From a virus, in the IMG/VR virus record IMGVR_UViG_3300045988_114464, positions 49,687 through 113,686 of that record: a stretch of DNA of 64,000 nucleotides; one strand, written 5' to 3'. Made by a program: the position numbers and the translations under genes. The notes under the pieces are model-generated. The model was not told the DNA's origin. It saw nothing but the letters and a program-made list of their open reading frames with translations, and did not search any database. This document shows, in pieces, positions 36,238 through 56,990 of the stretch. Positions within the stretch are counted from its first letter, which is position 1, and each line of letters begins with the position of its first letter.

Positions 36238-36945
36238 TTTGATTCCTCCATTAAATAGTTGTACCATGTTTCAGCCATTGCTTGCGCGATAGATGGGAAA
36301 GTTTTACTACGATTCTTAGCGCGTTCAGCTTGGTTCTTACCGCCTTGAGCGTCACACCAGTTTACTCTTTGTCCATTGTGGAGATAGTATTTAGCGTCCG
36401 GCTTATCAAAATCGTTACGTCTTTCAAGTAAAGGTAGACCCTTTAACCAAAGACAAGTGCGCTTCATGTCATAGCTTTCGTCATCTTTACTCGTGACAAA
36501 GTAATAGGGGTGGATAATCTGATTTGGCTTACGATAATGCGTGTTCATATAGCCAACAGGGTTTTCAATAGCAATATGCTTACAGTTGGCATGGACAAAG
36601 TTCATAAAGAAATCATACGCTTCTTCACGTTGCTTAATGCGTTCAGCAACTTTTTCTGGTGAGTTACATCGTAAGCTATAATGTCTTGTCCCTGCCACAG
36701 TAAGGTAAGTACAAGGTGGATGAGCAATGATTAAATCCCACTGTCCTTCCACCTTATGCACTTTGCCGTCCATTGTGGTAAATTCACAGTTACCGTTAAG
36801 TAAACTTAACACATCACCTTTAATATGCCATTCAGGGTGTCCACCGCTACACTCTTGAATGTCACAGGAGAAGCAACGCCCCCCCCAACTCACGGAAAGC
36901 CTTACAAACAGTTTGGCTTTCTTCACAAGCAATTAGAATATTCAT
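36234..36945 (-). CDS. DNA (cytosine-5) methyltransferase, reading frame broken at a G8 tract
   Basis: Motifs IIAHPPCTYL (PC) and IENPVG (ENV). The RBS-linked start MNILIACEESQTVCKAFRELGG (36945) is out of frame with the body ORF 36234-36932. G7 would restore the frame. Confidence 0.8.
36879..36886 (-). repeat. G8 homopolymer (coding strand) in the C5 methyltransferase
   Basis: Direct count: C8 on the + strand. Confidence 0.95.
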
Positions 36946-36959
36946 GGTTATCTCCTTAG

Positions 36960-37217
36960 TTATACTTCTTCGTATGTTTTTTCAAAAATATCAGGTTTAC
37001 AAGGGTAAAACTCGCCGTTTACACCCTTGATGATGTAGTCACCAACAGATGCCAGCATAGTTCCCTCAAGAGTTAAAACAAGGAACATTTTCTTGTTCTC
37101 ACTCCACACGACATTCATTCCGCAAAACTTGTCGATTTCCGTCTGGTTCTTGCCTGTCCACTGAACAGCTTCGATAACTACAGGTTTCTTACGATATTTC
37201 ATAATCATTTTCTTCAC
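36960..37217 (-). CDS. conserved small phage protein
   Basis: 85 aa, KKPVVIEAVQW...GDYIIKGVNGEFYPCKPDIFEKTYE. I recall this pattern from many phages, but its function is unknown. Confidence 0.55.
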   Translation of the reverse strand: MKKMIMKYRKKPVVIEAVQWTGKNQTEIDKFCGMNVVWSENKKMFLVLTLEGTMLASVGDYIIKGVNGEFYPCKPDIFEKTYEEV

Positions 37218-37411
37218 TCTCCGAAAATCATAATATATTTAGTCCCGCTCTCAGGGTCATGTTTGCGTAACCAATCCTTAAATTCCTTTTCAGTAGAACA
37301 GCGATATAGCATATTCTGCATTTCGTTCAAGTTCTGACGAATGATTTCAAGGTCTTTACGAACGCCGTTGATTGAATTGATAATGTCTTGTTGCACTTCT
37401 TTGTCAATCAT
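37214..37411 (-). CDS. hypothetical protein
   Basis: 65-aa ORF with overlapping stop/start. Confidence 0.45.
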   Translation of the reverse strand: MIDKEVQQDIINSINGVRKDLEIIRQNLNEMQNMLYRCSTEKEFKDWLRKHDPESGTKYIMIFGE

Positions 37412-37414
37412 TGC

Positions 37415-37642
37415 TTACTCCTTTCTAATGCCAATGCCAGCTTGCATAAGCAAATCATACAAGTCAAGGTCGCTTGAATCGGTGAGATAATCGCCGTTTT
37501 TATCATAAAGATTGTAATTGGTATAAGGTCGAGCCGTAATGCCTGTTAGATGTTGAAGTTTGGTGAGAAACACGGCATCAACGCCATCATATTCAAGATA
37601 CTCGTTTAATTCATTGAACTGTTTTTGAGAGATTGTTCTCAT
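37415..37642 (-). CDS. hypothetical protein
   Basis: 75-aa ORF. Confidence 0.45.
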   Translation of the reverse strand: MRTISQKQFNELNEYLEYDGVDAVFLTKLQHLTGITARPYTNYNLYDKNGDYLTDSSDLDLYDLLMQAGIGIRKE

Positions 37643-37863
37643 TCTACCTCACACCCCATATTCTTTGCCAGTTGTTCTACAGAAGTTTTAATTGTTGCAT
37701 TCGTCAATTTCATACCGTACTGCGGTAAATTTTCAATAATATCATTGATTTCCGCTTTGTACTCAATACCGTTATCTCTTAACGCTTGTAGTAGTTCATC
37801 TTTACGAATTAGACCACTAATCTCTATTGTGTAAGAATCACAAGTATTTGTTATTCCTTTCAT
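37639..37863 (-). CDS. hypothetical protein
   Basis: 74-aa ORF. Confidence 0.45.
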   Translation of the reverse strand: MKGITNTCDSYTIEISGLIRKDELLQALRDNGIEYKAEINDIIENLPQYGMKLTNATIKTSVEQLAKNMGCEVE

Positions 37864-38105
37864 TCCAATTCCTCCTGCAAGTCCATATTCACTGTTTCAG
37901 TACCGCAAGCATTCGGCTGTACCTTGTACTCAAAGCCATACTGCTTCTCATACCCTTGCAGTACACCTTCGATAGCTTCATAGCCTGTGTCGAACCTATG
38001 AACATCATGGTTTGCCTTGTCGATTAACTGCTCTGGGTCAATTTCATCTTCACATTCAATAATGTGATAGTGCTTGGTTAGTTCAACGATTAGATACTTA
38101 GCCAT
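37860..38105 (-). CDS. hypothetical protein
   Basis: RBS gaaggtga before ATG 38105. Confidence 0.45.
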   Translation of the reverse strand: MAKYLIVELTKHYHIIECEDEIDPEQLIDKANHDVHRFDTGYEAIEGVLQGYEKQYGFEYKVQPNACGTETVNMDLQEELE

Positions 38106-38298
38106 TGGTTTCACCTTCATTTGAAGAATTTTGTAAGTCGTTAATAAACGTCATAATCTTATTATAGCACTCGTTACATACGCAACTGTACACCTTGTCA
38201 ACAAAACCTTCGTGTTTTTCCGTCATGATGTTCCAACTCATGTACATCGTTCTCGCATTCATTTCCTTGCCACATACATCGCAAAATGTTTTAGTCAT
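38098..38298 (-). CDS. small zinc-ribbon protein
   Basis: CDVCG...CVCNEC pairs; RBS aaaggagaa. Confidence 0.5.
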   Translation of the reverse strand: MTKTFCDVCGKEMNARTMYMSWNIMTEKHEGFVDKVYSCVCNECYNKIMTFINDLQNSSNEGETNG

Positions 38299-38369
38299 TA
38301 TGATTCTCCTTTCACTAATTTTTGCTTGTTGATTGTACTATATCCGTCACGGAATATTTATCAATCATC

Positions 38370-38618
38370 TCAAACTAATAAATCTTTTATTTCTTTGCCA
38401 TCAATAGACTTAACAAAATAAAGCATAATATTAGGCGAAGAAGGACTTCCCAGCAAAATTGAAGTCGTCATATTTGTGTTGGTACAATATACTGTGATAA
38501 CATCATTTTCGATAGATTTAACATACCCAGTTGTGTTATCTTTGAATAAAATAAGCATATTAGGTTCAATCCAGCCAAATACTTGTTTTAAGTATGTGCT
38601 TGAAAATTTCGTTTTCAT
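38370..38618 (-). CDS. hypothetical protein
   Basis: 82-aa ORF. Confidence 0.45.
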   Translation of the reverse strand: MKTKFSSTYLKQVFGWIEPNMLILFKDNTTGYVKSIENDVITVYCTNTNMTTSILLGSPSSPNIMLYFVKSIDGKEIKDLLV

Positions 38619-38674
38619 TGAACGCCAACCGCCTTTCTTAGCTTTTTATAATTGCTTATACACCACAAAATGTT

Positions 38675-39389
38675 TTAATCATTATTATATTTTCCTTTCC
38701 ACCTAAACAGCTTTTCTGTTTTCTTAGGCTGATTATTCTTGTTATAGTCAAGCGTTCTTCTCAATTCCTTTTCCCAGACAACTTCAAAATCGTCTGGCGC
38801 TTCTTGCTCGGAAATAAATACAATACATCTCTTAGAAAGTTCACGCATATATTCCCAAAATTCTTCGTGGTTAAAATCACCAGTTGTATAACCAGTAGTT
38901 TTAGCATAAGGCGGGTCACAATATACAACCGCCCCGTTTGGAATATCAACTTCACGATAATCAAGACAAGTAAAATTGGCATTTTGTACACCTTGCAAGT
39001 CACGAAGTAAACTGCGTTCCGCTCGGGCACAATAATTGTCACCTCGTTTATTACTTGCCAACCCACCAAACCATTTACCACCAAACGAACAACCAAAACC
39101 GACAAAACCAGTTAATGCCTTATTCTCGTCTTTGTGCTCTTTGATGTAATAATATTCTTCTTTAGTGATAATAGAAGGTGGTGTCCAGCCAGACTGTAAA
39201 CCTTTCCACATTTCAATCAAATATGGATGCTTATCATTAAGAATTTTGGTTTCTGCTTTTACTTTCGCTTCAACAGCACAAGAGCCACAGAACAGACTTA
39301 CGAATGTCTGCCCCCCCCAAGTTCAAGGTGTGGTTGATAACTTGTGCAATCTGAGTTGAGATACGAGATTTTCCGCCCATGTATTGCAT
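38675..39389 (-). CDS. dam: DNA adenine methyltransferase (Dam-like, DPPY), reading frame broken at a G8 tract
   Basis: The start MQYMGGKSRISTQIAQVINHTLNLGG (ATG 39389, RBS ggagg) is out of frame with the body ...QTFVSLFCGSCAVE...DPPY (ORF 38675-39220). G7 would restore the frame. Confidence 0.8.
39311..39318 (-). repeat. G8 homopolymer (coding strand) in the dam-like gene
   Basis: Direct count: C8 on the + strand. Confidence 0.95.
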
Positions 39390-39390
39390 T

Positions 39391-39447
39391 GTTAATTACC
39401 TCCGAAATTTGTTTAGAAATACGAGATTTACCGCCTAAGTAACGCAT
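39391..39447 (-). pseudogene. orphan 19-codon 5' fragment of a second dam allele
   Basis: ATG CGT TAC TTA GGC GGT AAA TCT CGT ATT... encodes MRYLGGKSRISKQISEVIN. It parallels MQYMGGKSRISTQIAQVIN of the adjacent gene, and its 3' end supplies that gene's RBS. Confidence 0.65.
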
Positions 39448-39478
39448 ATAATCATCCTTTCATGTTGATGATTATATC

Positions 39479-39574
39479 TTATCTCATTTTAGTTGCTTTG
39501 TCAATACGTTCTTTGGCGATTTCAAAATAATTTTCATCAAGTTCCATACCGATGAAATTGCGGTTTGTATTGAC
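39479..39574 (-). pseudogene. orphan 3' remnant of an N4/N6 DNA methyltransferase gene
   Basis: Encodes VNTNRNFIGMELDENYFEIAKERIDKATKMR followed by a stop. This matches the typical C-terminal ..R.FIG.E.....Y...A..RI of N6_N4 methyltransferases. No upstream body is present. Confidence 0.55.
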
Positions 39575-39576
39575 AA

Positions 39577-40218
39577 TTATTCAAAATTAAACTTATATAC
39601 TCTTTTAACCCAACTTAAAAAATCTTCTTTTGACATTGTACTTTTGGCTGTGTTACAATATTTGCAACAAGGAACTGTATTTGTGACAGTATAGCCTATG
39701 TTACTATCAATTCTGTCAATTCCATTGCATTTTACAACAGTATCAGAAAATAAACCGTCTGCTTTTGTTTCGTTTCTTCTATCATATAAAACTTTAGAAT
39801 ACTCTAACCCACAATAATAACATGGCGATTTTGATTTTTTGATAAAATCTTCTATTGGCATAATTGTCCCATTAAATTTTTTGTGCCTTCTCATTAAATG
39901 GGAATATTGAACTTTGAAAATGGCGTATTCTCTATCTTCAAATAACCCAAATTGATTTCCTCTTTTTTTAAGAAACTCGGTTAGTAAGCATCCGCAACTT
40001 TTTGATTTTCCACTTGATAAATTATCGCCAACTACAATTTTTTGCTGACCGCAATCACATTGGCACAACCATGTATGTTTTCCCCTGTGGTCTTTACCCA
40101 TGTGTTTTATTACTACCAATCTTCCATATCTTTCACCCGTTCTGTCTCTAAATGCGCTCAATAATAAACCTGCTTTCTTTTTTATTGAGTTCAAGGCAAT
40201 CGCCATTCTTAATATCAA
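39577..40218 (-). CDS. free-standing HNH-like homing endonuclease (paralog family of three); start region ambiguous
   Basis: GERYGRLVVI...WLCQCDCG...SCGC N-terminal module; C-terminal GIDRIDSNIGYT..N.VPCCKYCN. The good RBS+ATG at 40222 is in another frame upstream of an A6 run. Confidence 0.6.
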   Translation of the reverse strand: MILRMAIALNSIKKKAGLLLSAFRDRTGERYGRLVVIKHMGKDHRGKHTWLCQCDCGQQKIVVGDNLSSGKSKSCGCLLTEFLKKRGNQFGLFEDREYAIFKVQYSHLMRRHKKFNGTIMPIEDFIKKSKSPCYYCGLEYSKVLYDRRNETKADGLFSDTVVKCNGIDRIDSNIGYTVTNTVPCCKYCNTAKSTMSKEDFLSWVKRVYKFNFE

Positions 40219-40253
40219 TCATTATTATTCTCCTATTTAACTTAAAGTTAATT

Positions 40254-40774
40254 TCACTTCTTCTGAATTTCTTCAAAGACAATCTGCTTTGGTAACATCT
40301 TGTGGCACACATACGCACTACTGAAAGGTGGGTTAAGGCTTGGCTTTTGGTCTGCGTAGTCCTTGAAGTAAGCAACTCTGCGGTTAAGGTACATGATTTC
40401 AAACTCATTGTTCTTAAATATATCGAACCTTCGCTGAGATTCAAACAAGCCTACAACACCCACCAGCATTGCGAACGGCTTGCCAATTTCAAACAGTCGT
40501 TCCAACACTTCTGTCTTGACGCTATAAGGTGGATTGCTGATAATCATGTCACACTGTGGTATTGGCATTGTGAAAAAGTCCTGACCATTATCAATGTGCG
40601 TACAGATTACCTTGTTGCCCTGTGCTTTAAGCATTTTAACGAAGTGTGATTCTTCTGTATCAAAAGGACACCATACCGTCAGTTGGGGGGGGCATAAGCC
40701 AAGATAGGCTTAACGGCATAGGGCGGTGTGTAGAAGTTATCGTTGCCAGAGCCAGCTACTTTATCCATTTTCAT
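40254..40774 (-). CDS. N6-adenine DNA methyltransferase (NPPY), reading frame broken at a C8 tract
   Basis: The start MKMDKVAGSGNDNFYTPPYAVKPILAYAPP (ATG 40774, RBS aaggagag) is out of frame with the body QLTVWCPFD...IISNPPYS (ORF 40254-40634). C9 or C6 would restore the frame. Confidence 0.75.
40685..40692 (-). repeat. C8 homopolymer (coding strand) in the NPPY methyltransferase
   Basis: Direct count: G8 on the + strand. Confidence 0.95.
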
Positions 40775-40787
40775 GATTGTTCTCTCC

Positions 40788-41243
40788 TTACTTAATCTCA
40801 ATAATTTTTTCTGCATCGCTCATCGTCATATCATTGGAAACGCGTTTAACATAAAAGAAATACTTCTTTGCGCCATCCTTTACTTTGTAGACGATAAAGA
40901 TATAATTTTGTCCAAGAACAAATGGCTCATCGTCTGTGTATTGAATGGTTTGGCTAACAACTTGTTCGTCAATGATTTCAGCGTGAGCGTCTAACCATGC
41001 TGAATCAATTTCTTCTACACAACAAGCGGGATAAGAAAAATTTTCTGTACCATTATAATAAGTGGTATAGTTAACAAATTTACCGTTATTATCCTTCTTG
41101 GCTTCTACAATATGCCCCCAATCTCCATATTGAGGAAGGATACCGAGAATAAAATCAATACCGTCTACAGTGTCTACAAGTCTTTCGTCAAATTCTTTGG
41201 CGCTTTTCAGCGCTTCTTCCCAAGGCTTAATATAAACTTTCAT
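40788..41243 (-). CDS. hypothetical protein (tandem paralog 1)
   Basis: MKVYIKPWEEALKSAKE...GDWGHI...CCVEEI... is shared with the next gene. Confidence 0.55.
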   Translation of the reverse strand: MKVYIKPWEEALKSAKEFDERLVDTVDGIDFILGILPQYGDWGHIVEAKKDNNGKFVNYTTYYNGTENFSYPACCVEEIDSAWLDAHAEIIDEQVVSQTIQYTDDEPFVLGQNYIFIVYKVKDGAKKYFFYVKRVSNDMTMSDAEKIIEIK

Positions 41244-41255
41244 AGCGTCCTCTCC

Positions 41256-41714
41256 TTAGTTAATTTCTCTAAAATCTTCTACAGTTTCTTCGCAACCGTT
41301 ATACGAAATACAATAAACATAAAAGAAATAAGCGTGTCTTGCGTCCATAGCCTTGTAAATCGTGATGTGGTGGGTTTCGTAACTTTCAAAGTTATCGTCC
41401 CATGCATCTGTGGTGAATACTTCTTCGCTAAACTTACTTGCGTGCTCTTCAAGCCAATTTGGTGTGATTTCTTCTACGCAACAAGCATCATAACTAAAAC
41501 CTATATCTTTAGACCGAGAATGCACTACGGTATAAGAAGTGTATTCATCATCACTGTTTTTCGTAACCGTGCAAATATGTCCCCAATCGCCCATGCGTCG
41601 AGAAACGCCCAAAATTTCCGCACGGTCAGGAAAGAAGTTTACAAACCCTTCATGCTTCTTGGCTTCTTTCAGTGCTTCAACCCACGGTTTGATATATACT
41701 TTCATAGTTTCCAT
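41256..41714 (-). CDS. hypothetical protein (tandem paralog 2)
   Basis: RBS aaggagg before ATG 41714. METMKVYIKPWVEALKEAKK...GDWGHI...CCVEEI. Confidence 0.55.
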   Translation of the reverse strand: METMKVYIKPWVEALKEAKKHEGFVNFFPDRAEILGVSRRMGDWGHICTVTKNSDDEYTSYTVVHSRSKDIGFSYDACCVEEITPNWLEEHASKFSEEVFTTDAWDDNFESYETHHITIYKAMDARHAYFFYVYCISYNGCEETVEDFREIN

Positions 41715-41768
41715 AATAAAACCTCCTTGATTTGATACTATTGTACCATTCTCAAGGAGGTCTGTCAA
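41715..41768 (-). promoter_or_regulatory. composite terminator hairpin with nested promoter and SD-containing 3' arm
   Basis: On the - strand: TTGACA, 17 nt, TACAAT. Arms ACCTCCTTGA/TCAAGGAGGT bracket the -10, followed by TTTATT and the ATG. Confidence 0.6.
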
Positions 41769-41785
41769 GCATTTATTTTAAGTTT

Positions 41786-42133
41786 TTAGAGAGAATTATA
41801 GCCAGAATTTTGTTTAGTTAAATATTGAAGCCCTTCTGATAGCGCTTCAAACATCATCTCTGCGTCATCAGTTGTCCAATATTCATCACGAATTTTATAT
41901 TTAACAACACAATCTGCTCCATAATTTTTTAGAGCGTCTTTGAATTGCTTCGCTAATTCTTCGCCATATACCGCTGGTTCTCCCATAATGGTTTTCACGC
42001 CATCTTTAGGTACAGAAACATAGTATGTTCCAGATAGATAGTTGTTAGGTTCTTGCTGTATATAAAGTCCCATTATATTTGCTTTTATAGCAGTGGTGGC
42101 AAACTCTAAATCTTTTTGTTGCTTTTCGTTCAT
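41786..42133 (-). CDS. hypothetical protein
   Basis: 115-aa ORF. Confidence 0.5.
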   Translation of the reverse strand: MNEKQQKDLEFATTAIKANIMGLYIQQEPNNYLSGTYYVSVPKDGVKTIMGEPAVYGEELAKQFKDALKNYGADCVVKYKIRDEYWTTDDAEMMFEALSEGLQYLTKQNSGYNSL

Positions 42134-42136
42134 TGC

Positions 42137-44371: not shown

Positions 44372-44425
44372 AAATAAGACCTCCGTTCTTGCGATTATTG
44401 TACCATAGAACGAAGGTCTTGTCAA
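44372..44425 (-). promoter_or_regulatory. composite terminator hairpin with nested promoter and SD-containing 3' arm
   Basis: On the - strand: TTGACA, 17 nt, TACAAT. 13-nt arms AGACCTTCGTTCT/AGAACGGAGGTCT (one G.U pair), followed by TATTT and the ATG. Confidence 0.6.
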
Positions 44426-44440
44426 GCATTTTATTCGATT

Positions 44441-44626
44441 TTATTCTTCTTCTCGTCTAAATTGTTCAATCCAATCAATGTAATTCTTCCAACCACACCG
44501 AGGACAATAAACTACACGATAATCTATAAGAGAAAACCAGTTGTCTTTAACCTTCCAATCAATCGTATCTTCATCGACTTCAAAGTTTTTATGACAACAT
44601 TCGCAGTTTACCTTTAGAATAGCCAT
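44441..44626 (-). CDS. small zinc-ribbon protein
   Basis: CECCH...CPRCG pairs. Confidence 0.5.
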   Translation of the reverse strand: MAILKVNCECCHKNFEVDEDTIDWKVKDNWFSLIDYRVVYCPRCGWKNYIDWIEQFRREEE

Positions 44627-44628
44627 AA

Positions 44629-44952
44629 TTACACCTCTTGGTCTACAATCTCGATAATCTCTTGCAAAGTGTCTAAAGCAGTTTGAGATTGTCGTACTCT
44701 CCCCAGTCCAGAAATACGCTGAACAATTTCCTTAATATCCATAAGAGCACGCTGAGCCGATTCAAGGTTTGCTTCATAAGATTCAAGTTCATACTTGGTA
44801 GCGTCTAAATCGTCTTGAACGTTAATAGGCTCTATGCAATTCTTGAGTTCTCTAAGAAAATCGCCACCCATATATTGATGAATATAATAGTAGCAATCTT
44901 CAAGGTCTTGAATAATTGCTTGACCACCATTCTTAATTGGTGTTACTGTCAT
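44629..44952 (-). CDS. hypothetical protein
   Basis: RBS ggaggtg before ATG 44952. Confidence 0.5.
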   Translation of the reverse strand: MTVTPIKNGGQAIIQDLEDCYYYIHQYMGGDFLRELKNCIEPINVQDDLDATKYELESYEANLESAQRALMDIKEIVQRISGLGRVRQSQTALDTLQEIIEIVDQEV

Positions 44953-49242: not shown

Positions 49243-50111
49243 CAATTATACCGTTGGTTATTTATTCCCAATACTTTAACACTGATTTAACAGTCGGTTT
49301 AGACTATATCTTCATCTCTATTTAAGAGAGGATGGCGCTGGATAAGGGGAGTTTCACCCCTTACCGCTTAGTCGTTGCAGATTTCTTTATCCATTTGTTT
49401 AGTCCAAACATTAAGAGTATAATTCTTTGTTCTCCGATATTTAACTAAACTCGTATATGAAATACAAGGGTTGTATTTCTGAAGAAAATCGCGTAGTTCT
49501 GTGCCACCTACTAATATAGGCGATACTACTTCTCCGTCTTTTAATACTTGATAATGTTTATAATTGCGTAAAGCGTTTATTCCACTATCTGTATAACTTT
49601 GATGGATATTTTCTTCTTGAGTAATCCATTTAAGATTAAGTATAATGATTATTATAAATATTGGCATCTTTGTGTCCCACAACAGCACCTTCAAACCAAC
49701 CGTTTATAAAATGCAAAGCAACCAATCTATGAATTAAACAATGTTTATATATTCCGTCATTTCGCTTCAGAGTAACACAAAGATAAGCACTTGTTGAACC
49801 ACAATAAGGGGACAATTTTCTCCATTTGTTTCCCATGCGTTTTGACATAACAGTTCCGTTATCTCCGATAGCGTAGCCATCATAATTTTTAATAGCTACA
49901 AATCGTTCACCGTTAATCGTAAAAAGTGTTTCCATCAGTTTCACCTCCTTTGTATTAAAATGTTTGGATAAAGACTTTCCACAGTATTGCCATGTTGCCG
50001 ATTCTAAACAACAAGGTTTCCACTGTTAGCACCTTGTAAAGGCACACCCTGTATGTACAGGTTCACCATCTTGTTTTCTATGCGTCACCGCATAGCCAGA
50101 CTATGTTGTTA
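49243..50111 (-). mobile_element. group I intron in the DNA polymerase gene
   Basis: P1 is CCAGAU paired with GUCUGG (11-16 nt into the intron), with a U.G pair. The 3' core is GAAGATATAGTC. Omega-G at 49243. Splicing restores ELPD-IDND. Confidence 0.85.
49368..49935 (-). pseudogene. intron-encoded HNH homing endonuclease, frameshifted
   Basis: RBS aaggagg before ATG 49935. ...VVGHKDANIYNNHY ends at a stop, and the motif continues as LNLKWITQEEN in the +1 frame (ORFs 49636-49944 and 49368-49694). Confidence 0.7.
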
Positions 50112-51563
50112 ATCTGGAAGTTCCACACCTCTCATGTGATTTAAGTGTCGCCAAGACGGCATATAATCACCAAGGGGAAGAGGGTCAATTTGAGTAATTG
50201 AAAGCAAATAGCAAGTTTCAAAGCCAGCCGCAGAACCACGGGCGGGCATTGACAAACTACCAGCGTCCCAAATCAGTTCGATAATTTCTGTCATCGTACT
50301 GTAATAAGACGGCATGGAAGTATGAAGCTGGTCACTGATAATTTTAAGTTCTTTCCATTCTTCGTTTAAGCGTTGAATGTAAGGTTCTACTTCCTTTCCA
50401 CGATTTAGCACCTTATCAATCAAACCTTGTTCAGCTTGATAGAAAAAATATCGTTCATGGATAGGGCGGTCAGCACTTGCATAATAACCAAAGTATTCAT
50501 ATTTATCATAATATTCTTTGAATTTATGTCGAGTATGAAAAATCTTTGGTAGTTTGTCTAATGGAATTTGAGGGATAATAGGGTCATGTAGAATGTTATA
50601 TTCTTGTACTCTATCAGCAATCTCATCGCTCCAAGCAAACATCTTATCAATTTGCTCATTAGTAAAGTCAATAAGTAGATATTCACGCAATTCTTGTTCG
50701 CTCATGCAATATGCCGTTGCATAAAATGAGTCTACTTCTCTATCGCCTTCTTGCGAAAGCAAATAGGTCTTGTGAATAACCGCATCTTCTTTTCTAAGAT
50801 AATGTGCGTCAGTTGTGGCGATAATAGGAATATTTGTCTTTTCATGCAGTTTCCACAACAAACGATTAACCTTGCTTTGGTCTGTATCGGCTTCACTTGC
50901 TGGCTGTACTTCAAGATAAAAATTACCTTTGCCAAAGATATACTGAAAATAATTGGCTTCTTCTACCGCTTGTTGAAAAGAACCTTGTAAAAGAAGTTTG
51001 TCAATTACCGAGCCTAAACAAGCTGAACTTGCTATTACATGACCACGATTACCACCAATCACTTCTTTAAGGTCGGTATAATACGTTGGTCTACGATAAA
51101 TTTTACCTTGTTTCCATGCTCTTATCCATGCTCTTGTAGACAATTCACGCAGTTGCTTATGACCTTCAGTATCAAGAGCAAGAAGAATAAAGTGATAATA
51201 CGGTGTAGAGTTTGGCGTTTCGCGGTTAAGCAAATCATCTTCTTCTCTAACAGCGTAAATCTCATTACCTAAACCAAGAGTAAATGGTCTATCTTTCTCC
51301 ATAGACTGCCATTTCTTCAAGGCTTGAATATGGCTACTGATACCTTCGTGTTCAGTAATACTGATACCACGCAAGCCAATATCATAAGCGTATTGAATCA
51401 AGTCTGGCAATCTATTTACTACATCAGGGAATCCAAGCATTGCATTGCTGTATTCCGAGTGCGTGTGATTATTGTACACTTCTAACCCCTCCTTAAAACA
51501 AAAATGGGAATAGCTTTTAACTACTCCCATTCTATCACATATCTGTTCACTTGTCAAGCTCAA
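50112..51563 (-). CDS. dnaE: DNA polymerase III alpha-type polymerase, exon 1 (PHP domain)
   Basis: PHP motifs NHTHSEYS, ITEHEG, ATTDAHY. Ends ...GVELPD at the 5' splice site. Confidence 0.85.
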
Positions 51564-51750
51564 ATCTAATATACGGATACTCTTTTATAGCGATTACTCG
51601 TGCATTGTCTATTTCCATAGCGTTCAAAAAATTATTGATTGAAAGTACAATATTTCCATTATCTTTCAACTCGTTGGACTTGTTATCTAATGCAATACAC
51701 CTTGCAAGCATCACAACCAATCTTTCAAACTGAAAATTTGTCATTAACAT
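51547..51750 (-). CDS. hypothetical protein
   Basis: 67-aa ORF. Confidence 0.45.
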   Translation of the reverse strand: MLMTNFQFERLVVMLARCIALDNKSNELKDNGNIVLSINNFLNAMEIDNARVIAIKEYPYIRFELDK

Positions 51751-51755
51751 TTTAA

Positions 51756-52151
51756 TTACTCCTTGTCAAGAAGTTCTAACGTCATTTTTCTAAGTTTTCT
51801 GAGTTCGTCACCGCAAGCGTTCAACTGACAAAAAGCACTGTCAATTTTACGAGCAACTTTTTCATACTGCTCCAATATTGCACCCTTGTCTGGATTCAAT
51901 ACATTCTCTCCAATCTTATCAAAAGTTTTGTTGAGATTATCAATTTGTCCCACCCACGCATAATCGGTATACGCATAAATGGTTTCAGAATCACTTTTAT
52001 TTGTAACATTAACAGAATCAAAATCAAGAGGTTGTAAATCAAGCCGAATTTCTCCGAGGGTTCTATAAGTGTAATAAAAATTTATAATTCTATATCTAAC
52101 GCCTTCTTTGGTAATGGCAATATCACCAACGTGAATATCATTAAAGTTCAT
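51756..52151 (-). CDS. hypothetical protein with small beta-barrel-like N-terminus
   Basis: 131 aa; ATGA overlap with the upstream gene. Confidence 0.5.
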   Translation of the reverse strand: MNFNDIHVGDIAITKEGVRYRIINFYYTYRTLGEIRLDLQPLDFDSVNVTNKSDSETIYAYTDYAWVGQIDNLNKTFDKIGENVLNPDKGAILEQYEKVARKIDSAFCQLNACGDELRKLRKMTLELLDKE

Positions 52152-52483
52152 AGCATATTAACCTCCATTTCATCAAGTCTATATCTAAGTGCTCTAACTT
52201 CCTTAGTCAACTTAGCAATCTGTTCTATCAAAGCCTTAAAATCGCTCATACTAACTGTTTGCAAATTCTCGCCACCAATAGATTCAAAATATTTATACAT
52301 ATCTTTTTCAAGACCATGATATTCAATGTACTTTTTGGTAAAATCACCAAAATTACCAGTATCATCTGGCTTAATGCGAAGGTCATACCACACTTCGCCG
52401 TTATGACTCCTCATTTCAACCTTGGTAATAACACCAGTTGTACCTTGTAGGGTTTTAATTCCCCAGCCTTCACGAATATTCAT
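52148..52483 (-). CDS. hypothetical protein
   Basis: RBS ggaggg before ATG 52483; ATGA overlap with the upstream stop. Confidence 0.5.
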   Translation of the reverse strand: MNIREGWGIKTLQGTTGVITKVEMRSHNGEVWYDLRIKPDDTGNFGDFTKKYIEYHGLEKDMYKYFESIGGENLQTVSMSDFKALIEQIAKLTKEVRALRYRLDEMEVNML

Positions 52484-52752
52484 TGAATACACCCTCCACA
52501 ACATCCACGCGGTACATTCTCATTCACGACCTTGAGAATTTCATCCCTGTACTGCTCAAGGCTTTCGGGCAAGCCACAAAGTCGCCAATCGCCAGTTTCA
52601 ATGTACTCATTCCGTTCTTCATCAAATCCACACTTACCGCCAGACCGCAAGCAGGGTGCTTCAAGAGTAAATTCTTCCCCATTCACTCTAATAATCAGTG
52701 TACCACTGCACAAGTTCGGAAACTTACCATTATACGATACAAATTCTACCAC
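52480..52752 (-). CDS. Cys-rich small protein
   Basis: 90 aa ending in CCGGC. Confidence 0.5.
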   Translation of the reverse strand: MVEFVSYNGKFPNLCSGTLIIRVNGEEFTLEAPCLRSGGKCGFDEERNEYIETGDWRLCGLPESLEQYRDEILKVVNENVPRGCCGGCIQ

Positions 52753-52754
52753 GA

Positions 52755-53624
52755 TTATACCTCCAACAGCTTATGTGTTAACGTCCAATTATAACGTCTT
52801 ACTTCAGCACACTTCTTGTTATATTCTTCTCGCGCTTTCTTGCTACGAGCATAATTGTCTGGATATTTAGGTCTGTCCATCAGCATTTTCTTATTACAGC
52901 ACTCGCTATCTACATATACCTTGCTGTCACGAACCCACAGTTCCTTATCAGCAATGTTATCTACCTCTTTGAAAGCGTCCAGATACTTCTTTCTATCTAT
53001 TGCACTAAAGCCTTTGCGCTTCAAATAATAGCACGCTTCGCACACAGAATATTCTTCATCGGACAGTGCCAACCTTTGTTCAGCACAAAACTGCCTATAA
53101 GCAATATACTTTTCACACGCTTCATAGGTAGAGAACATCTCGTTCTCATGGCATTTAATGCTATCAGCAAGGCTCTTGCCAAAGAATCCAGTATCATGTG
53201 CTTGAAACTTCTCAGTAAGGATATAACCATTACCGTCCTTTTTAACGTCATGGTCAACATAGAATACATTCTTATAAGAAATTGGCACAAGCCAACCTTT
53301 AACAAGATACTGATATACAGCTTCTTCGTCACGCCAATAAATGACAATTTTCATGCTCTCAGGATAAGCCCAATGCTCTTCACGCTCGTAAGGACAATGC
53401 GACTTATAGGTAAATTCCTTTGCACTGATTTTACAAGATACCTGTCCAATTTCATACCAAGGCTTGCCATTGATATAGGTTTCAATGTTAGGCACGATAC
53501 GCTTTAGACCTTCGTCAGTTAAATAAACGCACATTGGGTGGACATTGCCGCAAACATAGTTAAAATCCATTGCGTTATCACAAATATTAGGGATATAATA
53601 GATGTTCTTTTTTACGATTTCCAT
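52755..53624 (-). CDS. hypothetical protein
   Basis: RBS aaggagag before ATG 53624; about 289 aa, Cys-rich. Confidence 0.55.
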   Translation of the reverse strand: MEIVKKNIYYIPNICDNAMDFNYVCGNVHPMCVYLTDEGLKRIVPNIETYINGKPWYEIGQVSCKISAKEFTYKSHCPYEREEHWAYPESMKIVIYWRDEEAVYQYLVKGWLVPISYKNVFYVDHDVKKDGNGYILTEKFQAHDTGFFGKSLADSIKCHENEMFSTYEACEKYIAYRQFCAEQRLALSDEEYSVCEACYYLKRKGFSAIDRKKYLDAFKEVDNIADKELWVRDSKVYVDSECCNKKMLMDRPKYPDNYARSKKAREEYNKKCAEVRRYNWTLTHKLLEV

Positions 53625-53648
53625 AGTTTTCACTCTCCTTATGTGACT

Positions 53649-53677
53649 ATTGTATCACATCTCTAAAGAACCGTCAA
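53649..53677 (-). promoter_or_regulatory. sigma-A type promoter
   Basis: On the - strand: TTGACG, 17 nt (ending TGa), TACAAT. Confidence 0.55.
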
Positions 53678-53864
53678 CATAAATTTCTAAAATGTTAATA
53701 TCAAAAGCGATAGATTTTACACCATACTGACAATAATTGCATCTACCTATTTCTTTTTGAAACTCATATACAAGCCCTGAAAATACACATTTATTGTTTT
53801 CTTCAAAAACTTCAATATAGGTATCACCAGCGATTTTTCTTATCAATTCATATAAGGTGAACAT
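53655..53864 (-). CDS. hypothetical protein (tandem paralog b)
   Basis: ATG 53864 is preceded by TGAAGAAAGGATTGgttggt, the same initiation region as the neighbouring gene. Confidence 0.5.
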   Translation of the reverse strand: MFTLYELIRKIAGDTYIEVFEENNKCVFSGLVYEFQKEIGRCNYCQYGVKSIAFDINILEIYVDGSLEM

Positions 53865-53887
53865 ACCAACCAATCCTTTCTTCAAAA

Positions 53888-54091
53888 TTATTCTTCCACA
53901 ACAATTTCAAAATAATTCTTTTCTCTGTTAAAATTAAGTGAGCAGACTTCTTCGCCTTTAACATATTCCTTACCAATCCAGTAAAATTCTTCAACATTAC
54001 CAATATATAAAGGCACGTTTGGCTTCTCTCTGTTAATAATTACAATATTTGCAAACGCAGGTAATACAAATATCAACTCTAACAATTTCAC
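53888..54091 (-). CDS. hypothetical protein (tandem paralog a)
   Basis: GTG 54091 is preceded by TGAAGAAAGGATTGattgaa. The longer ORF in the track overlaps the deaminase gene. Confidence 0.45.
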   Translation of the reverse strand: MKLLELIFVLPAFANIVIINREKPNVPLYIGNVEEFYWIGKEYVKGEEVCSLNFNREKNYFEIVVEE

Positions 54092-54092
54092 T

Positions 54093-54503
54093 TCAATCAA
54101 TCCTTTCTTCAGCCGTGCCAAAGTCAGTAGTATACACCACTCTTTTAACACCCAAACTCTTAATCATCTTCATGCATCCAGCACACGGTCTTGCCATGCC
54201 ATTCTCGCCATCACATTTTCTCTTACGAGCAATGTATACCGTTACTTTAGACCACTCAATTTCTTCGTTAAGTAGTGGGGCGAGTGCGTGTATCTCTGCG
54301 TGAAGATAATGCGGTTTATCATCTTCTGGGAAACGCTCTCTATTATATTTCTTCTGCAAGGGATGGGTCTTGCAAGTATTGAACGCTGTGTTAAGCACTG
54401 TGTTCTTCTGCGCTACTACACAGCCCATATGGTATCTGCCATAGTCACTGCAATCAGCAATAGACAAGGCATGAGCCAGCATTTTTTTATCGTTCTTGTT
54501 CAT
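54093..54503 (-). CDS. deoxycytidylate (dCMP) deaminase
   Basis: Zinc motifs HAEIHAL and PCAGCMKMI. Confidence 0.85.
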   Translation of the reverse strand: MNKNDKKMLAHALSIADCSDYGRYHMGCVVAQKNTVLNTAFNTCKTHPLQKKYNRERFPEDDKPHYLHAEIHALAPLLNEEIEWSKVTVYIARKRKCDGENGMARPCAGCMKMIKSLGVKRVVYTTDFGTAEERID

Positions 54504-54688
54504 AAAAATAACCACTTAATTATACTACACCAATAAAAAATCCAGAGAATGATGATAGATAAAGAAGCAAAGATAATAATGCTCCAACTTCTGTAATGAT
54601 AATATTTCCATTCATCAATAATTAACCACATTGCATTTACAGTCATAAAAATCATCGCAAATAAAGGGAAAGCAAAAAGAACAAACAT
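54500..54688 (-). CDS. small membrane protein
   Basis: 62 aa with two hydrophobic segments; RBS gaggtga. Confidence 0.5.
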   Translation of the reverse strand: MFVLFAFPLFAMIFMTVNAMWLIIDEWKYYHYRSWSIIIFASLSIIILWIFYWCSIIKWLFL

Positions 54689-54707
54689 TTATAATTTCAC
54701 CTCACAA

Positions 54708-54923
54708 TTAGCACACAAAAAGGATAACCCATGCAACCATGCACAGCAGAACAATATACCATTCAATCCAGTTCCCCCAGAACAGTACAGGTGTTTGATG
54801 CTTTCTAAGCCAATACTTCATATCTTTCCATACATTGTATGAACTCAGACAGAAAGCAAGCAAAAGAATTGGAACAACAGCCCAACGAATAAACTCTACA
54901 AAAACCTTATCATTACCCATCAT
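54708..54923 (-). CDS. small membrane protein
   Basis: RBS gggag before ATG 54923; two hydrophobic segments. Confidence 0.5.
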   Translation of the reverse strand: MMGNDKVFVEFIRWAVVPILLLAFCLSSYNVWKDMKYWLRKHQTPVLFWGNWIEWYIVLLCMVAWVILFVC

Positions 54924-54925
54924 TA

Positions 54926-55270
54926 TCACTCCCAATCAATCAGCACTTCGATATATCTCATTCTACACTGGTCATTCGGAACATCACCAGACACGACCCT
55001 ATATCCCTTTTGCTCAAGCGCTCTCATAAGTCGCTGTTCAGCCAATACAGAAATGAGGTTAGCATTGTACACGATACGAGGATTGACCGCTTGTGCATCG
55101 TTAATGCGCTTCATCATTTCAATGTGCATAGTGCTCTTGAGATAAGAGTAACCGCTTACGTCCTTGAAGCCCTGCTTACCCTTAGATAGATTGTTAAAGA
55201 TACCGATATTCTTACGAATCATCTTCATATATTCTTCCTTAGTCGGAAGTACGTTATAACTGTTTGCCAT
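54926..55270 (-). CDS. hypothetical protein
   Basis: 114-aa ORF; RBS ggaggaa. Confidence 0.5.
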   Translation of the reverse strand: MANSYNVLPTKEEYMKMIRKNIGIFNNLSKGKQGFKDVSGYSYLKSTMHIEMMKRINDAQAVNPRIVYNANLISVLAEQRLMRALEQKGYRVVSGDVPNDQCRMRYIEVLIDWE

Positions 55271-55272
55271 GT

Positions 55273-55491
55273 TTATTCCTCCGCCTTTACAATAAAACTT
55301 TTCTCAACAAGCCATGTATGATTACCCGAAGTGCCGCTATCTTCGCCCCAATTTACGAGAACCATTTTTTTATCCACCGTTGTCACTACCTCACCAATTA
55401 CTGTACAAGCGGGATAAAACTCAGGCAAAGCAATGTGTGCTACATTGCTCTTCATACGCACTTTATCACCAGCACAAAACCGAGTTTCCAT
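55273..55491 (-). CDS. small beta-barrel (SH3-like) domain protein
   Basis: GDKVRMK...YP..G.IGEVV....K.VLVNWG pattern, repeated twice in 59575-60753. Confidence 0.5.
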   Translation of the reverse strand: METRFCAGDKVRMKSNVAHIALPEFYPACTVIGEVVTTVDKKMVLVNWGEDSGTSGNHTWLVEKSFIVKAEE

Positions 55492-55503
55492 ATTTATTCT
55501 CCT

Positions 55504-55827
55504 TTATTTACGTTCAACATGATAGTTCATACCTGCTCTAAAAGATTCAATCAACAAATCCTTAATGATTTCTTGTTCTTTTGCGCTGAAATTCTTTAAG
55601 GCATTATCGTTAATGTTCTTTTCAATATAGTCCCATGACTCTGCTTTAGGTAGAACATAAGGCTTTAATTCATCTTCATCACACCAATGATTAAACTTTT
55701 CTCCTGTGACGAAATAATAATATCCACGACCATCACAGCTTACTTGGGTAACAATCCCCAGCGGAACTTTTGAGCGTTCTGATACTTCCTTAGTTACTTT
55801 GTCGCCAATCTTAAACTTTGCTTTCAT
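55504..55827 (-). CDS. hypothetical protein
   Basis: 107-aa ORF; RBS aaggagg. Confidence 0.5.
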   Translation of the reverse strand: MKAKFKIGDKVTKEVSERSKVPLGIVTQVSCDGRGYYYFVTGEKFNHWCDEDELKPYVLPKAESWDYIEKNINDNALKNFSAKEQEIIKDLLIESFRAGMNYHVERK

Positions 55828-55848
55828 AAAAACAACCTCCTTATTAAA

Positions 55849-56026
55849 TTAACCAAAAAGATAGTACACAGTAACAAGAGAAGTTACAAAATACATAATT
55901 AAGACGCATCCAAAAATAAATGCGTATTCTGAAGTAATAGCCAAATATAATAGCACTGCAAAAATAATAGTCCACAGCGAAATACCTAACGAAACCATAA
56001 TAATTGTACCTACCATAAAAAACAAC
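55849..56026 (-). CDS. small membrane protein
   Basis: RBS aaggagg before ATG 56026; almost entirely hydrophobic. Confidence 0.5.
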
Positions 56027-56084
56027 CTCCTTTGTTTATGTATCAATGATACCACAAAGGAGGTTGTATGTCAAGGGATTTTAT
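56027..56084 (-). promoter_or_regulatory. composite terminator hairpin with nested promoter and SD-containing 3' arm
   Basis: On the - strand: TTGACA, 17 nt, TATCAT. 12-nt arms AACCTCCTTTGT/ACAAAGGAGGTT, followed by gTTTTTT and the ATG. Confidence 0.6.
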
Positions 56085-56093
56085 GAAATTTTA

Positions 56094-56543
56094 TTAAAAG
56101 CCATATATAGAAATATCATATTCTACAGTAGCACTCCATTGATAATTACTACCCACTTGATGTGAAGAAAAATAACAAGGATATTGAGTACCTCCCACAG
56201 AAGAACTTACATTGTTATATTGCCAATATGAATTTCTCCTATAAGCAAATGCGCTACCTACCATTGTTGAACCACTTCCAGAAGTCGATAGTAATATACC
56301 ATCGTTTACTCCATAACCTGTTACTTGATTTCCCAACGAAGTATATAAAGATGATAAAGTGCCGTTTACATAAATATTAAATTTTATCAATAGCAAAGAA
56401 TATTCATCATCTACTGAAAAAGAATAAATATTGCAATCTGTTCTATTATATTCTTTGTTTATTGTCCCCGTTTTATGGTCGAGTAACGACAATGAAACAG
56501 AAGATGTTTCTGCTGAACCTTCCTTCATCACCTTGGCGTTCAT
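56094..56543 (-). CDS. hypothetical beta-rich protein (paralog 2 of the MxAKVMKE pair)
   Basis: ATG 56543 gives MNAKVMKEG...; preceded by the G-rich gtggggtgg. Confidence 0.55.
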   Translation of the reverse strand: MNAKVMKEGSAETSSVSLSLLDHKTGTINKEYNRTDCNIYSFSVDDEYSLLLIKFNIYVNGTLSSLYTSLGNQVTGYGVNDGILLSTSGSGSTMVGSAFAYRRNSYWQYNNVSSSVGGTQYPCYFSSHQVGSNYQWSATVEYDISIYGF

Positions 56544-56565
56544 GCTACCACCCCACTTTCGGAGT

Positions 56566-56877
56566 TTAGCCGAACGCAGTAAAATAAACCATTGTAGAGT
56601 ATTCGTGACCAATGTTGAACCGTAATGTATTTTCGTCCCAAGACATTTGAAATAGAATTATGTCGTGGTCTTCTAAGCCTTCTAAATTGTACACCTCGGT
56701 TTGACCATTGACAGCAATTCCGTATTTGTCCTGTCCGAATTTGACAGTAATAAAATATGGGTCGAATGAAAATGTTACTGTATACATTCGTGAATAGTGA
56801 ACCGATACCGATTGTACTTCGATTCGACAACTGTTGTTTTTCGAAGAAAACATTTCTTTCATTACTTTTGCATCCAT
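56566..56877 (-). CDS. hypothetical protein (paralog 1 of the MxAKVMKE pair)
   Basis: MDAKVMKEMF...; the ATG lies 8 nt after the G8 tract. Confidence 0.55.
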   Translation of the reverse strand: MDAKVMKEMFSSKNNSCRIEVQSVSVHYSRMYTVTFSFDPYFITVKFGQDKYGIAVNGQTEVYNLEGLEDHDIILFQMSWDENTLRFNIGHEYSTMVYFTAFG

Positions 56878-56885
56878 TACTTACG

Positions 56886-56893
56886 CCCCCCCC
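56886..56893 (-). repeat. G8 homopolymer 8 nt upstream of ATG 56877
   Basis: Direct count: C8 on the + strand. Confidence 0.95.
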
Positions 56894-56945
56894 AACTGAA
56901 CGAGAAGTTTGTAAGTTGTGAACATCAGGAGGATTGCTTACGCGC

Positions 56946-56990
56946 TCAACGTAAGCCCCCCCCCAGTGAAACAATGGTTTGGTTAATCAT
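56946..56990 (-). CDS. 14-codon leader ORF crossing the G9 tract
   Basis: RBS aaaggagg 9 nt before ATG 56990. Encodes MINQTIVSLGGGLR followed by a stop, as sequenced. Confidence 0.4.
   Translation of the reverse strand: MINQTIVSLGGGLR
56956..56964 (-). repeat. G9 homopolymer inside the leader ORF
   Basis: Direct count: C9 on the + strand. Confidence 0.95.

Follow-up and report, generated by a model that had tools for sequence, protein, structure and literature searches.

G/C homopolymer tracts as probable frame switches of DNA methyltransferase genes in a phage genome from metagenomic sequence

Introduction

Phage orphan methyltransferases are usually seen as fixed anti-restriction equipment. 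A 64-kb stretch of viral DNA (64,000 nucleotides (nt), positions 49,687 to 113,686 of IMG/VR virus record IMGVR_UViG_3300045988_114464; hereafter the window) raises the question of whether such enzymes could instead be stochastic switches. Each of three methyltransferase genes in the window, here called MT1, MT2 and MT3, carries a run of eight G or C near its 5' end, and each is out of frame. An initial annotation had read these runs, together with two others in a leader region, as a hypermutable network controlling the three enzymes. We find it highly probable that tracts 1-3 are simple-sequence contingency loci, acting as independent ON/OFF frame switches of phage methyltransferases and producing mixed methylation phasotypes as a form of bet-hedging.

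Results

Long G/C runs are rare, and three of five lie in methyltransferase genes

The window, with a G+C content of 38.5%, contains exactly five G/C runs of at least 8 nt, at the very positions of the initial annotation, none of length 7 and a single run of length 6 (a G6 at 2747). The pooled spectrum (16513 runs of length 1, 3175 of 2, 440 of 3, 82 of 4, 10 of 5, 1 of 6, 0 of 7, 4 of 8 and 1 of 9) drops about 6.3-fold with every extra base up to length 5 and rebounds at 8-9. Geometric extrapolation predicts 0.05 runs of at least 8 in the window and a model of independent bases 0.2, in line with the earlier estimate of well under one; the Poisson probability of five or more, using the extrapolated mean, is about 3e-9. 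The longest A/T runs in the window reach 7. All five tracts sit in minus-strand gene regions, within open reading frames (ORFs) or initiation regions, in excess of what composition accounts for. Three of the five are found within methyltransferase genes that make up 3.1% of the window (binomial P = 2.9e-4). A motif scan of the window ORFs revealed no methyltransferase-like ORF beyond MT1, MT2 and MT3, so that all three methyltransferases of the window bear a tract. The genes and their tracts are as follows.

36234-36945, minus strand: MT1, DNA methyltransferase (phrog_757, PHROG E = 8.6e-57), 236 residues, intact save for the tract
36879-36886, minus strand: tract 1, G8 on the coding strand, MT1 codons 21-23; in frame at G7 or G10
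38675-39389, minus strand: MT2, Dam-like D12-class N6-adenine methyltransferase (DPPY), from its second start; 237 residues at G7
39390-39447, minus strand: MT2 copy 1, in which the N-terminus is duplicated upstream over 58 nt, MRYLGGKSRISKQISEVINN; its frame is -1 relative to that of copy 2; ATG at 39447
39311-39318, minus strand: tract 2, G8 on the coding strand, MT2 codons 25-27, between the N-terminal motif and motif I
40254-40774, minus strand: MT3, small putative NPPY-type N6-adenine methyltransferase (phrog_799 'DNA methyltransferase', E = 3.5e-31), 173 residues
40685-40692, minus strand: tract 3, C8 on the coding strand, MT3 codons 28-30; in frame at C9 or C6

Tracts 1-3 thus occupy codons 21-30 of their genes, close to the 20-30 codons given earlier, and each leaves its gene off frame by one base. 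Repair of the tract alone restores proteins of 236, 237 and 173 residues for MT1, MT2 and MT3.

The window is identical to the 113,687-nt contig k119_134353 of ENA assembly ERZ27260741 and to the 113,623-nt scaffold_83 of ERZ28663390 (ZEEV15-1_SAMEA3664508), and the region of tracts 4 and 5 is identical in the Logan assembly of run ERR1136711. Tract lengths agree across these three source-sample assemblies, which makes an assembler error unlikely. The scaffold name points to a human gut metagenome as origin, and the SLH domain of a NAGPA protein encoded next to the leader hints at a Firmicutes host. Megablast of both tract regions against GenBank phages returned no match, and a helicase query against 185,579 species genomes recovered no relative of the window phage. 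Relatives were found as mosaic loci in IMG/VR and other metagenome assemblies and are cited below by locus number.

Three different enzymes, each intact once its tract is repaired

MT1 starts at ATG 36945, preceded by AAGGAGA, and reads MNILIACEESQTVCKAFREL up to the tract. It had been described as a C5 type with PC and ENV motifs; the motifs present are PPC and ENP. The C5 family PF00145 was not matched in Pfam, a profile comparison by hhalign with C5 methyltransferases was not significant (E = 0.18, with motif IV alone aligned), and a sequence search of the PDB gave no meaningful match. The AlphaFold2 (AF2) model of an 83%-identical in-frame ortholog (pLDDT 92.9) has DNMT3A/B, M.HaeIII and DNMT1 as its top Foldseek matches in the PDB (E 3e-5 to 1e-3, TM 0.4-0.5), and MT1 homologs are named 'DNA cytosine methyltransferase' in their sources. 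At the level of the modelled fold, a C5-like enzyme is supported.

For MT2, the Dam-like DPPY type proposed at the outset was borne out by PF02086 (73.9 bits against a cut-off of 22) and phrog_56; DPPY and SLFCGSC, an FxGxG-like motif I, are both present. The profile match places MT2 in the D12 (Dam-like) class. An equivalog of E. coli Dam was ruled out, as the score against TIGR00571 is under the cut-off. MT3, beginning at ATG 40774 and reading MKMDKVAGSGNDNFYTPPYAVKPILAYA up to its tract, has the NPPY motif expected of it in addition to its phrog_799 match, but Pfam EcoRI_methylase scores 21.7 bits, below the cut-off of 26.4. None of MT1, MT3, the Mom-like gene described below and the small genes of the leader region received a name from NCBIfam.

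Tract lengths vary between relatives while the proteins are conserved

In-frame and out-of-frame alleles are common in nature for all three genes. The MT1 tract is G7, and in frame, in L098 and L102, and G8, out of frame, in the window, L099, L100 and L101. In the 90% protein cluster of MT1 (200 members), 6 of the 15 members listed are in frame and start MNILIACEESQ...LGGRCFSCD; the other nine are truncated or have starts in another frame (MKKAKLFVRLSVSWGGRCFSCD). For MT3, C9 (in frame) occurs in L002 and L003 and C8 (out) in the window and L102, and its 90% cluster (213 members) has, among 15 listed, 4 full-length proteins and about 10 with truncated or other-frame starts. Most of 80 MT3 homologs have no tract at this position (K-P-N-S is one example), C7-C10 occurs at the same codons in several lineages and G6 or G7 in one other; the homologs that are out of frame are exactly those with non-permissive tract lengths. 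For MT2, lengths of G6 to G10 cover both frame states, so that comparison of relatives, suggested in the initial annotation, gave productive and unproductive alleles of every gene.

A fourth methyltransferase gene behaves in the same way. The window retains its remnant:

39577-40222, minus strand: MT4 remnant and an HNH/endonuclease VII-like gene (phrog_374, phrog_1035), which has replaced the MT4 body

What is left of MT4 is the first 12 codons, MIDIKNGDCLEL (40222-40187), and about 93 nt of the 3' end. Relatives retain an intact MT4 (N6_N4_Mtase, PF01555) with a polyC tract at codons 17-19; in L003 and L101 this tract is in frame, at C8, and in L002 and L099 it is out of frame, at C9.

Repair of the tract alone produced a full-length ORF in every allele of MT1-MT4, with no other lesions. 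Pairwise ratios of nonsynonymous to synonymous substitution rates (dN/dS) for MT1-MT4 were 0.01-0.14 at dS 0.2-0.8, pairs in which both alleles are out of frame included (MT1, 0.05-0.14; MT2, 0.03-0.11 among four alleles, all G8; MT3, 0.01-0.05). These genes are full-length after repair and have low dN/dS, and hence are not decaying pseudogenes; the intact catalytic bodies of the initial annotation are confirmed by the same two results. That annotation had taken tracts fixed out of frame in all relatives, accompanied by disabling mutations, as the mark of pseudogenes, and what we found were in-frame alleles and no further lesion.

Comparison of near-identical loci places the length changes in the tracts. 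L018 and L020, 99.77% identical over 12.5 kb, differ by 23 substitutions and 5-6 indels, all of the latter in G/C tracts, and five of their seven tracts differ in length. Between L078 and L080 or L083 (98.3% identical) there are 4-5 indels, again all in tracts. A G8 in an RNA-ligase-like gene (encoding MVGGGRT; L068:2107, and also in L077, L078, L080, L081 and L083) is invariant and in frame in six of six loci, and the methyltransferase tracts of the same six loci are variable; the constancy of this G8 points to purifying selection on that gene and speaks against a general miscalling of homopolymers.

The tract sites are also occupied by repeats of different chemistry in different lineages, polyC or polyG in MT3 and polyG or (GA)n in MT2. 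Sequence comparison indicates that tracts arose independently at the same sites, and such variety at one permissive site would be hard to explain except by selection for mutability. At the MT1 site, the closest tract-free homologs read LGHEAYSCD where the window reads LGG(G8)RCFSCD, and other phrog_757 homologs bear (AG)6-9 repeats deeper in the gene, at about codon 100-107.

Several further observations concern MT1 and its surroundings. The (AG)6-9 repeats are at L093:3309, L118:1603, L122:2779 and L135:6298, and the length of the match in L135 is not divisible by three, so that this copy appears out of frame. At codon 11, where every other MT1 homolog encodes Gln (CAA/CAG), those at L089:3001-3666 and L092:3001-3666 carry TAG in frame, which would fit phages in which TAG is read as Gln. 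A Mom-like gene adjoins MT1 in two relatives. At about 32127-35098 of the window (minus strand; coordinates based on L095 gene calls), an HNH_3 homing-endonuclease gene divides the coding sequence of the anaerobic ribonucleotide reductase NrdD into two ORFs of 396 and 307 residues, and another HNH_3 gene lies directly downstream of the split NrdD, beside a ThyX-like gene. This arrangement suggests invasion by an intron or homing endonuclease.

MT2 carries two N-termini in different frames

MT2 is distinguished by a duplicated N-terminus. The copy-2 start is ATG 39389, with MQYMGGKSRISTQIAQVINHTLNL up to the tract, and copy 1, upstream, includes the ribosome-binding site of copy 2. The duplicated functional motif comprises about 18 residues. 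The short form consists of copy 2 and the body, and the long form of copy 1, the out-of-frame copy 2 as a linker of about 26 residues, and the body. With two N-terminal copies one frame apart, two of the three repeat phases yield a complete enzyme: G7 or G10 gives the short isoform, G9 or G6 the long isoform, and G8 is OFF. The frame corrections listed in the initial annotation (one base fewer for the two G8 tracts of MT1 and MT2, one more or two fewer for the C8 tract of MT3) have the right signs, but MT2 is also productive with one base more, through its second N-terminal copy. The 90% protein cluster of MT2 (121 members) includes all of these states.

P0270: MT2 short, NLGGQTF, G7; same 90% cluster as the window allele
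P0275: MT2 short, NLGGGQTF, G10; same cluster
P0267 and P0276: MT2 long, LELGGGQTF, G9; same cluster
P0143: MT2 long, LELGGQTF, G6; same cluster
P0263 (window allele, G8) and five others: MT2 OFF, truncated to 174-180 residues; the tract was read as G8 for P0263 only

In the wider MT2 family (L161-L191), the N-terminal motif is followed, ahead of motif I, by polyG (7-13) in some lineages and by (GA)8-11 in others, and the duplicated N-terminus is present if and only if such a repeat is present. Duplication and repeat occur together in L161-L162 and in L166-L185 except L167 and L168; a single N-terminus without a repeat is found in L163-L165, L167, L168 and L186-L191. Two of the duplicated loci are special cases: in L183 one copy only was detected, and L180 has an interrupted tract (G4AG5) that is locked in the long-isoform frame. 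The two starts are 55, 58 or 85 nt apart, invariably 1 mod 3 (12 lineages), and in some lineages the tract has been duplicated too. Long, short and OFF states are split roughly equally in the family. Read in their own frames, the copies have dN/dS of 0.18 (copy 1) and 0.17 (copy 2), at dS of at least 1, compared with values above 1 in the other frames (copy 1: 1.3), which indicates that both are under selection at the protein level. In an AF2 model of the long form, the copy-1 helix is predicted with confidence (pLDDT about 91) and the linker is disordered. The two isoforms may differ in activity or specificity. A promoter-like site, by consensus match only, is situated directly upstream of copy 1 at 39476-39504 on the minus strand (TTGACA, a 17-nt spacer and TAAGAT).

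Tracts recur in DNA-modification genes of other phages and prophages

Over all fetched loci, which were centred on methyltransferases, the run spectrum is again bimodal, with counts of 27 at length 6, 30 at length 7, 63 at length 8 and 36 at length 9. There are 163 unique tract contexts, and in 129 of them the tract is inside a DNA-modification gene or no more than 400 nt away from one; these genes encode C5, NPPY, Dam, phrog_757 and N6_N4 methyltransferases as well as Mom-like and PAPS-reductase-like proteins. The Mom-like gene (phrog_1384, E = 6e-57) has a polyG tract that is out of frame in L100 and L102; no in-frame allele was seen. A clade of 65-141-kb gut phages bears 7-11 tracts per 12 kb around its MT3 homolog. 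Tracts are present as well in a genomic island or prophage of the cultured Dysosmobacter segnis BX15 (NZ_JACOQI010000002:306430-316948), which has six, and in a Pseudoflavonifractor metagenome-assembled genome. The genes with tracts are MT3, two PAPS-reductase-like genes (PF01507) and C5 methyltransferases of the classical type (PF00145). Two ORFs directly upstream of the tract-rich island of D. segnis BX15 (L141:2081-4346) resemble, on inspection by eye, a nicotinamide phosphoribosyltransferase and an NAD synthetase, and could form an NAD-salvage counter-defence module.

Tracts 4 and 5 belong to a leader and a pair of small genes

The remaining two tracts are not linked to methyltransferases. 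They lie at a leader that follows the gene of the NAGPA-SLH protein.

56946-56990, minus strand: leader mini-ORF of 14 codons, MINQTIVSLGGGLR and stop, with a strong ribosome-binding site, AAGGAGG, at 57006-57000
56956-56964, minus strand: tract 5, a G9 at codons 9-12 of the leader mini-ORF
56936-56956, minus strand: 7-bp hairpin GCTTACG-N7-CGTAAGC directly after tract 5, followed by an anti-SD-like (anti-Shine-Dalgarno) CCTCCT
56886-56893, minus strand: tract 4, G8, at the position of a ribosome-binding site for the 103-residue gene, whose ATG follows after 8 nt
56566-56877, minus strand: 103-residue gene (MDAKVMKE...), without a Pfam, PHROG or NCBIfam match
56094-56543, minus strand: 149-residue paralog-like gene (MNAKVMKE...), without a Pfam, PHROG or NCBIfam match; body divergent in a relative

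Both tracts had been assigned to a short leader ORF. The G9 tract is indeed inside it, but the G8 tract begins after a further 52 nt (56945-56894) beyond its stop and would fall inside the ORF only if tract 5 were G8 or G11. At those two lengths of tract 5, the length of tract 4 would determine whether the leader ends at a stop 4 nt before the ATG, at a UAAUG overlap stop or in an out-of-frame read-through. A fusion of the leader ORF to the 103-residue gene was excluded by a TAA in that frame just before the ATG. The RNA of 56860-57010 is predicted to fold at -46 kcal/mol (z = -2.97), with CCUCCU at 56932-56927 pairing with the G run of tract 5; an Rfam scan of the leader gave no family and one chance-level match only, and scans for promoters and terminators brought out no informative signal. 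The paralogous 149-residue gene has GGGGTGG at the position equivalent to tract 4. An exact-pattern scan for the leader hairpin recovered L085 alone, the sole relative with the same leader, in which tract 5 is again G9 and tract 4 is G7 rather than the G8 of the window. Phase-variable translational coupling to a small hypervariable gene pair is a rather doubtful reading of this leader, by which the tract lengths would set whether ribosomes translating it reach and couple to the start of the small gene.

Compared with L085:6001-6814, the small genes of the window (56094-56877) share the first 6-9 residues, and the rest is unrelated. The pair has the appearance of a cassette-like diversity hot spot; its neighbours are a small membrane protein and the NAGPA-SLH protein. 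At L084:720-810, a gene of 126 residues is preceded by another mini-ORF leader, which has a G8 and, after it, a short hairpin and a ribosome-binding site. The polyG leader may be a reusable module.

Discussion

We propose that a tract gains or loses one G:C pair through slipped-strand mispairing when the phage DNA is replicated. The resulting shift between the N-terminus linked to the ribosome-binding site and the catalytic body would turn an orphan methyltransferase ON or OFF in a heritable and reversible manner. With independent switches, a phage population would be a mixture of methylation phasotypes; the majority state in this assembly would be OFF for all three genes, and MT2 could serve as a three-state switch between short isoform, long isoform and OFF. 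In the ON state, methylation would shield progeny DNA from restriction-modification systems, and its cost would be reduced fitness or lethality on hosts with methylation-dependent (type IV-like) nucleases. Bet-hedging is the likely benefit, and that the selective reason is evasion of restriction-modification set against type IV restriction is a step we infer, much as the initial annotation did. Of the switch network imagined there, the hypermutable frame switches at tracts 1-3 are supported. Tracts 4 and 5 are not on methyltransferases, and we rejected a single co-regulated network of five tracts, since each acts on its own gene and states vary independently among relatives.

A different account of the same tracts holds that the out-of-frame state is itself functional and that ribosomal frameshifting or transcriptional slippage at the tract provides a low level of enzyme. 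MT2 is G8 in all four genomes read as DNA, as a recoding signal might be; in the copy-1 frame this tract gives G GGG GGC, a heptamer that would be slippery for a -1 shift into the long isoform, and long homopolymers favour RNA polymerase slippage. However, a programmed -1 frameshift calls for invariant DNA, and lengths in all three phases are common among relatives for every gene, unlike a fixed recoding signal; nor is (GA)n, found at the same site, a classical slippery site. No stimulatory structure came to light downstream of tracts 1-3, where no search aimed at one was made. We therefore regard recoding as an improbable substitute for switching at the DNA level, which it may nevertheless accompany, and tract recoding could add leaky expression from OFF alleles.

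Somewhat less probable still is a neutral origin, in which replication expands G/C runs and these persist only in dispensable genes, with no selection for switching. The genes that bear tracts are accessory, and 29 of the 163 contexts lie elsewhere, in leaders and unassigned ORFs, as this would predict. Mere expansion fits poorly with a bimodal spectrum whose mode at 8-9 lies beyond a gap at 6-7, with tracts that are confined to variable linker positions within the first 20% of each gene, or with the convergence of different repeat types on one site. The N-terminus duplicate of MT2, offset in frame, found only together with the repeat and under selection as protein, would be hard to explain without selection for frame switching.

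It is very improbable that the tracts are really in frame and that homopolymer miscalling produced the one-base differences. All three genes are off by exactly one base and homopolymers are error-prone on several platforms, but the three agreeing assemblies come from different pipelines, with contig names typical of short-read assemblers, and the corrections needed are of opposite sign. Moreover, both allele states occur across dozens of independent public assemblies, with lengths of 6-10 and even 13; in other lineages (GA)n repeats stand at the same site; A/T runs are almost free of indels in the alignments in which G/C tracts vary; and the equally long G8 of the RNA-ligase-like gene never does. 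Miscalling would also leave the existence of the tracts unexplained. Equally remote is a plain decay of frameshifted accessory methyltransferases into pseudogenes, which three out-of-frame genes and a fourth destroyed by an HNH gene insertion might suggest, given that the frameshift is always at the tract, that dN/dS is low even between two out-of-frame alleles (dS about 0.2-0.55) and that in-frame alleles are common in the same 90% clusters.

Several points count against switching as we propose it. All of the length variation seen is between assemblies and not within one population, and rates of switching within a population, the activity and specificity of the enzymes, the selective agent and the mechanism of the leader are what we infer. 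All three methyltransferases are OFF in the window, which fits random phase (P about 0.15) but also selection for loss. MT2 is G8, hence OFF, in four of four distinct genomes read as DNA (the window, L002, L003 and L102), and its other lengths come solely from members of the protein cluster. The 79% of tract contexts at DNA-modification genes is inflated by ascertainment, the unbiased share of methyltransferases being the window's own three of five, and the leader comparison consists of two sequences, without covariation.

Repeat-switched methyltransferases are classical in bacteria. In the phasevarions of Haemophilus, Neisseria, Helicobacter, Streptococcus suis and Actinobacillus, several that switch independently can occur in one genome (PMC5909438, PMC10123105, PMC6265453). 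Like MT1-MT3, these Mod and other methyltransferase genes have a repeat near the 5' end of the ORF, and they undergo the ON/OFF switching by slipped strands that is proposed here. The genes described here differ in belonging to a virulent-looking phage of about 114 kb and to prophages rather than to a bacterial chromosome, in encoding orphan type II-like enzymes (Dam, small NPPY, C5-like and N6_N4) rather than type III Mod or type I HsdM, and in their expected target, which is the phage's own DNA and not a host regulon. We rejected the label phasevarion, as control of a regulon is without evidence here. It is conceivable that prophage relatives make the methylome of their host phase-variable.

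In phages, the closest precedent is the A9 contingency locus in agt of T2, on which TgvAB and McrA/BC exert opposite selection (Gomez, Barrick and Waters, bioRxiv 2025, PMC12633550). Among the T2/T4 contingency loci, agt likewise has a homopolymer within a phage DNA-modification gene that undergoes reversible frameshifts (PMC12633550). The T2 tracts are A runs of at least 6, near the density expected from composition; they are spread over every class of gene, and their mutants occur at frequencies of about 1e-4 to 1e-3 (PMC12633550). By contrast, the phages studied here carry (GA)n repeats or G/C runs of 8-10, which are rare; these tracts cluster heavily in DNA-modification genes and differ in length between most near-identical genomes, with several tract genes per genome and a dual-frame N-terminus. 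The agt locus is a direct experimental precedent for the selection logic of ON and OFF states, a shield against restriction-modification on one side and modification-dependent nucleases on the other.

Campylobacter phages reportedly have polyG tracts in receptor-binding or host-recognition genes, and their host is itself said to use polyG switching. Those phages resemble ours in that polyG tracts in phage genes reportedly lead to phenotypic subpopulations, and they differ in the targets, here DNA-modification genes, and in the setting, here gut phages linked to Clostridia (Oscillospiraceae). What the initial annotation said of receptor-binding genes in Campylobacter phages agrees with citations of the study concerned (Sorensen et al., Cell Rep 2021), so far as those citations extend.

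In the lic loci of H. influenzae, start codons in two frames upstream of tetranucleotide repeats create three expression states. MT2 is similar in that initiation in more than one frame makes extra repeat phases productive. Unlike the lic loci, MT2 has an entire functional motif, some 18 residues long, in duplicate, with conservation of each copy as protein, and the result would be two structurally different isoforms and not two expression levels. Slipped-strand regulation was also suggested in 2016 for a prophage methyltransferase (group G) of Bibersteinia trehalosi with a possible repeat, with an association called 'less obvious' (PMC4996451); that case concerns a single gene, without comparative or architectural analysis. 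Full-text literature searches uncovered no account of repeat-switched methyltransferase sets in phage genomes, in keeping with the initial annotation, which was aware of no described phage-borne phasevarion with several methyltransferases, and none of a dual-frame N-terminus design; a 2026 review of prokaryotic methyltransferases includes no phase-variable phage-encoded enzyme. We consider the duplicated, frame-offset N-terminus the most original element of this system.

More tentatively, and with somewhat more doubt than assurance, a guild of Clostridia gut phages and prophages may wear a combinatorial 'epigenetic coat', with a hypermutable repeat in nearly every DNA-modification gene, a ternary Dam-like switch with two enzyme isoforms and a phase-variable lysogen methylome. 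Such a coat, with up to about ten tracts per island, might let a single burst release many methylation phasotypes, a suggestion that we put forward with the same reserve.

Collectively, these results extend contingency loci in phages from an observation in T-even laboratory phages to a widespread, selected feature of human-gut viruses, and present the dual-frame N-terminus as an escape from the one-in-three limit of frameshift switches. D. segnis BX15 offers a cultured entry point. If these methyltransferases are stochastic switches, annotation pipelines systematically mis-call their genes as fragments (here 31 + 126, 39 + 178 and 230 residues), methylomes would be a confounded basis for assigning metagenomic phages to their hosts, and host range and plating efficiency would be properties of the population that shift within a few generations.

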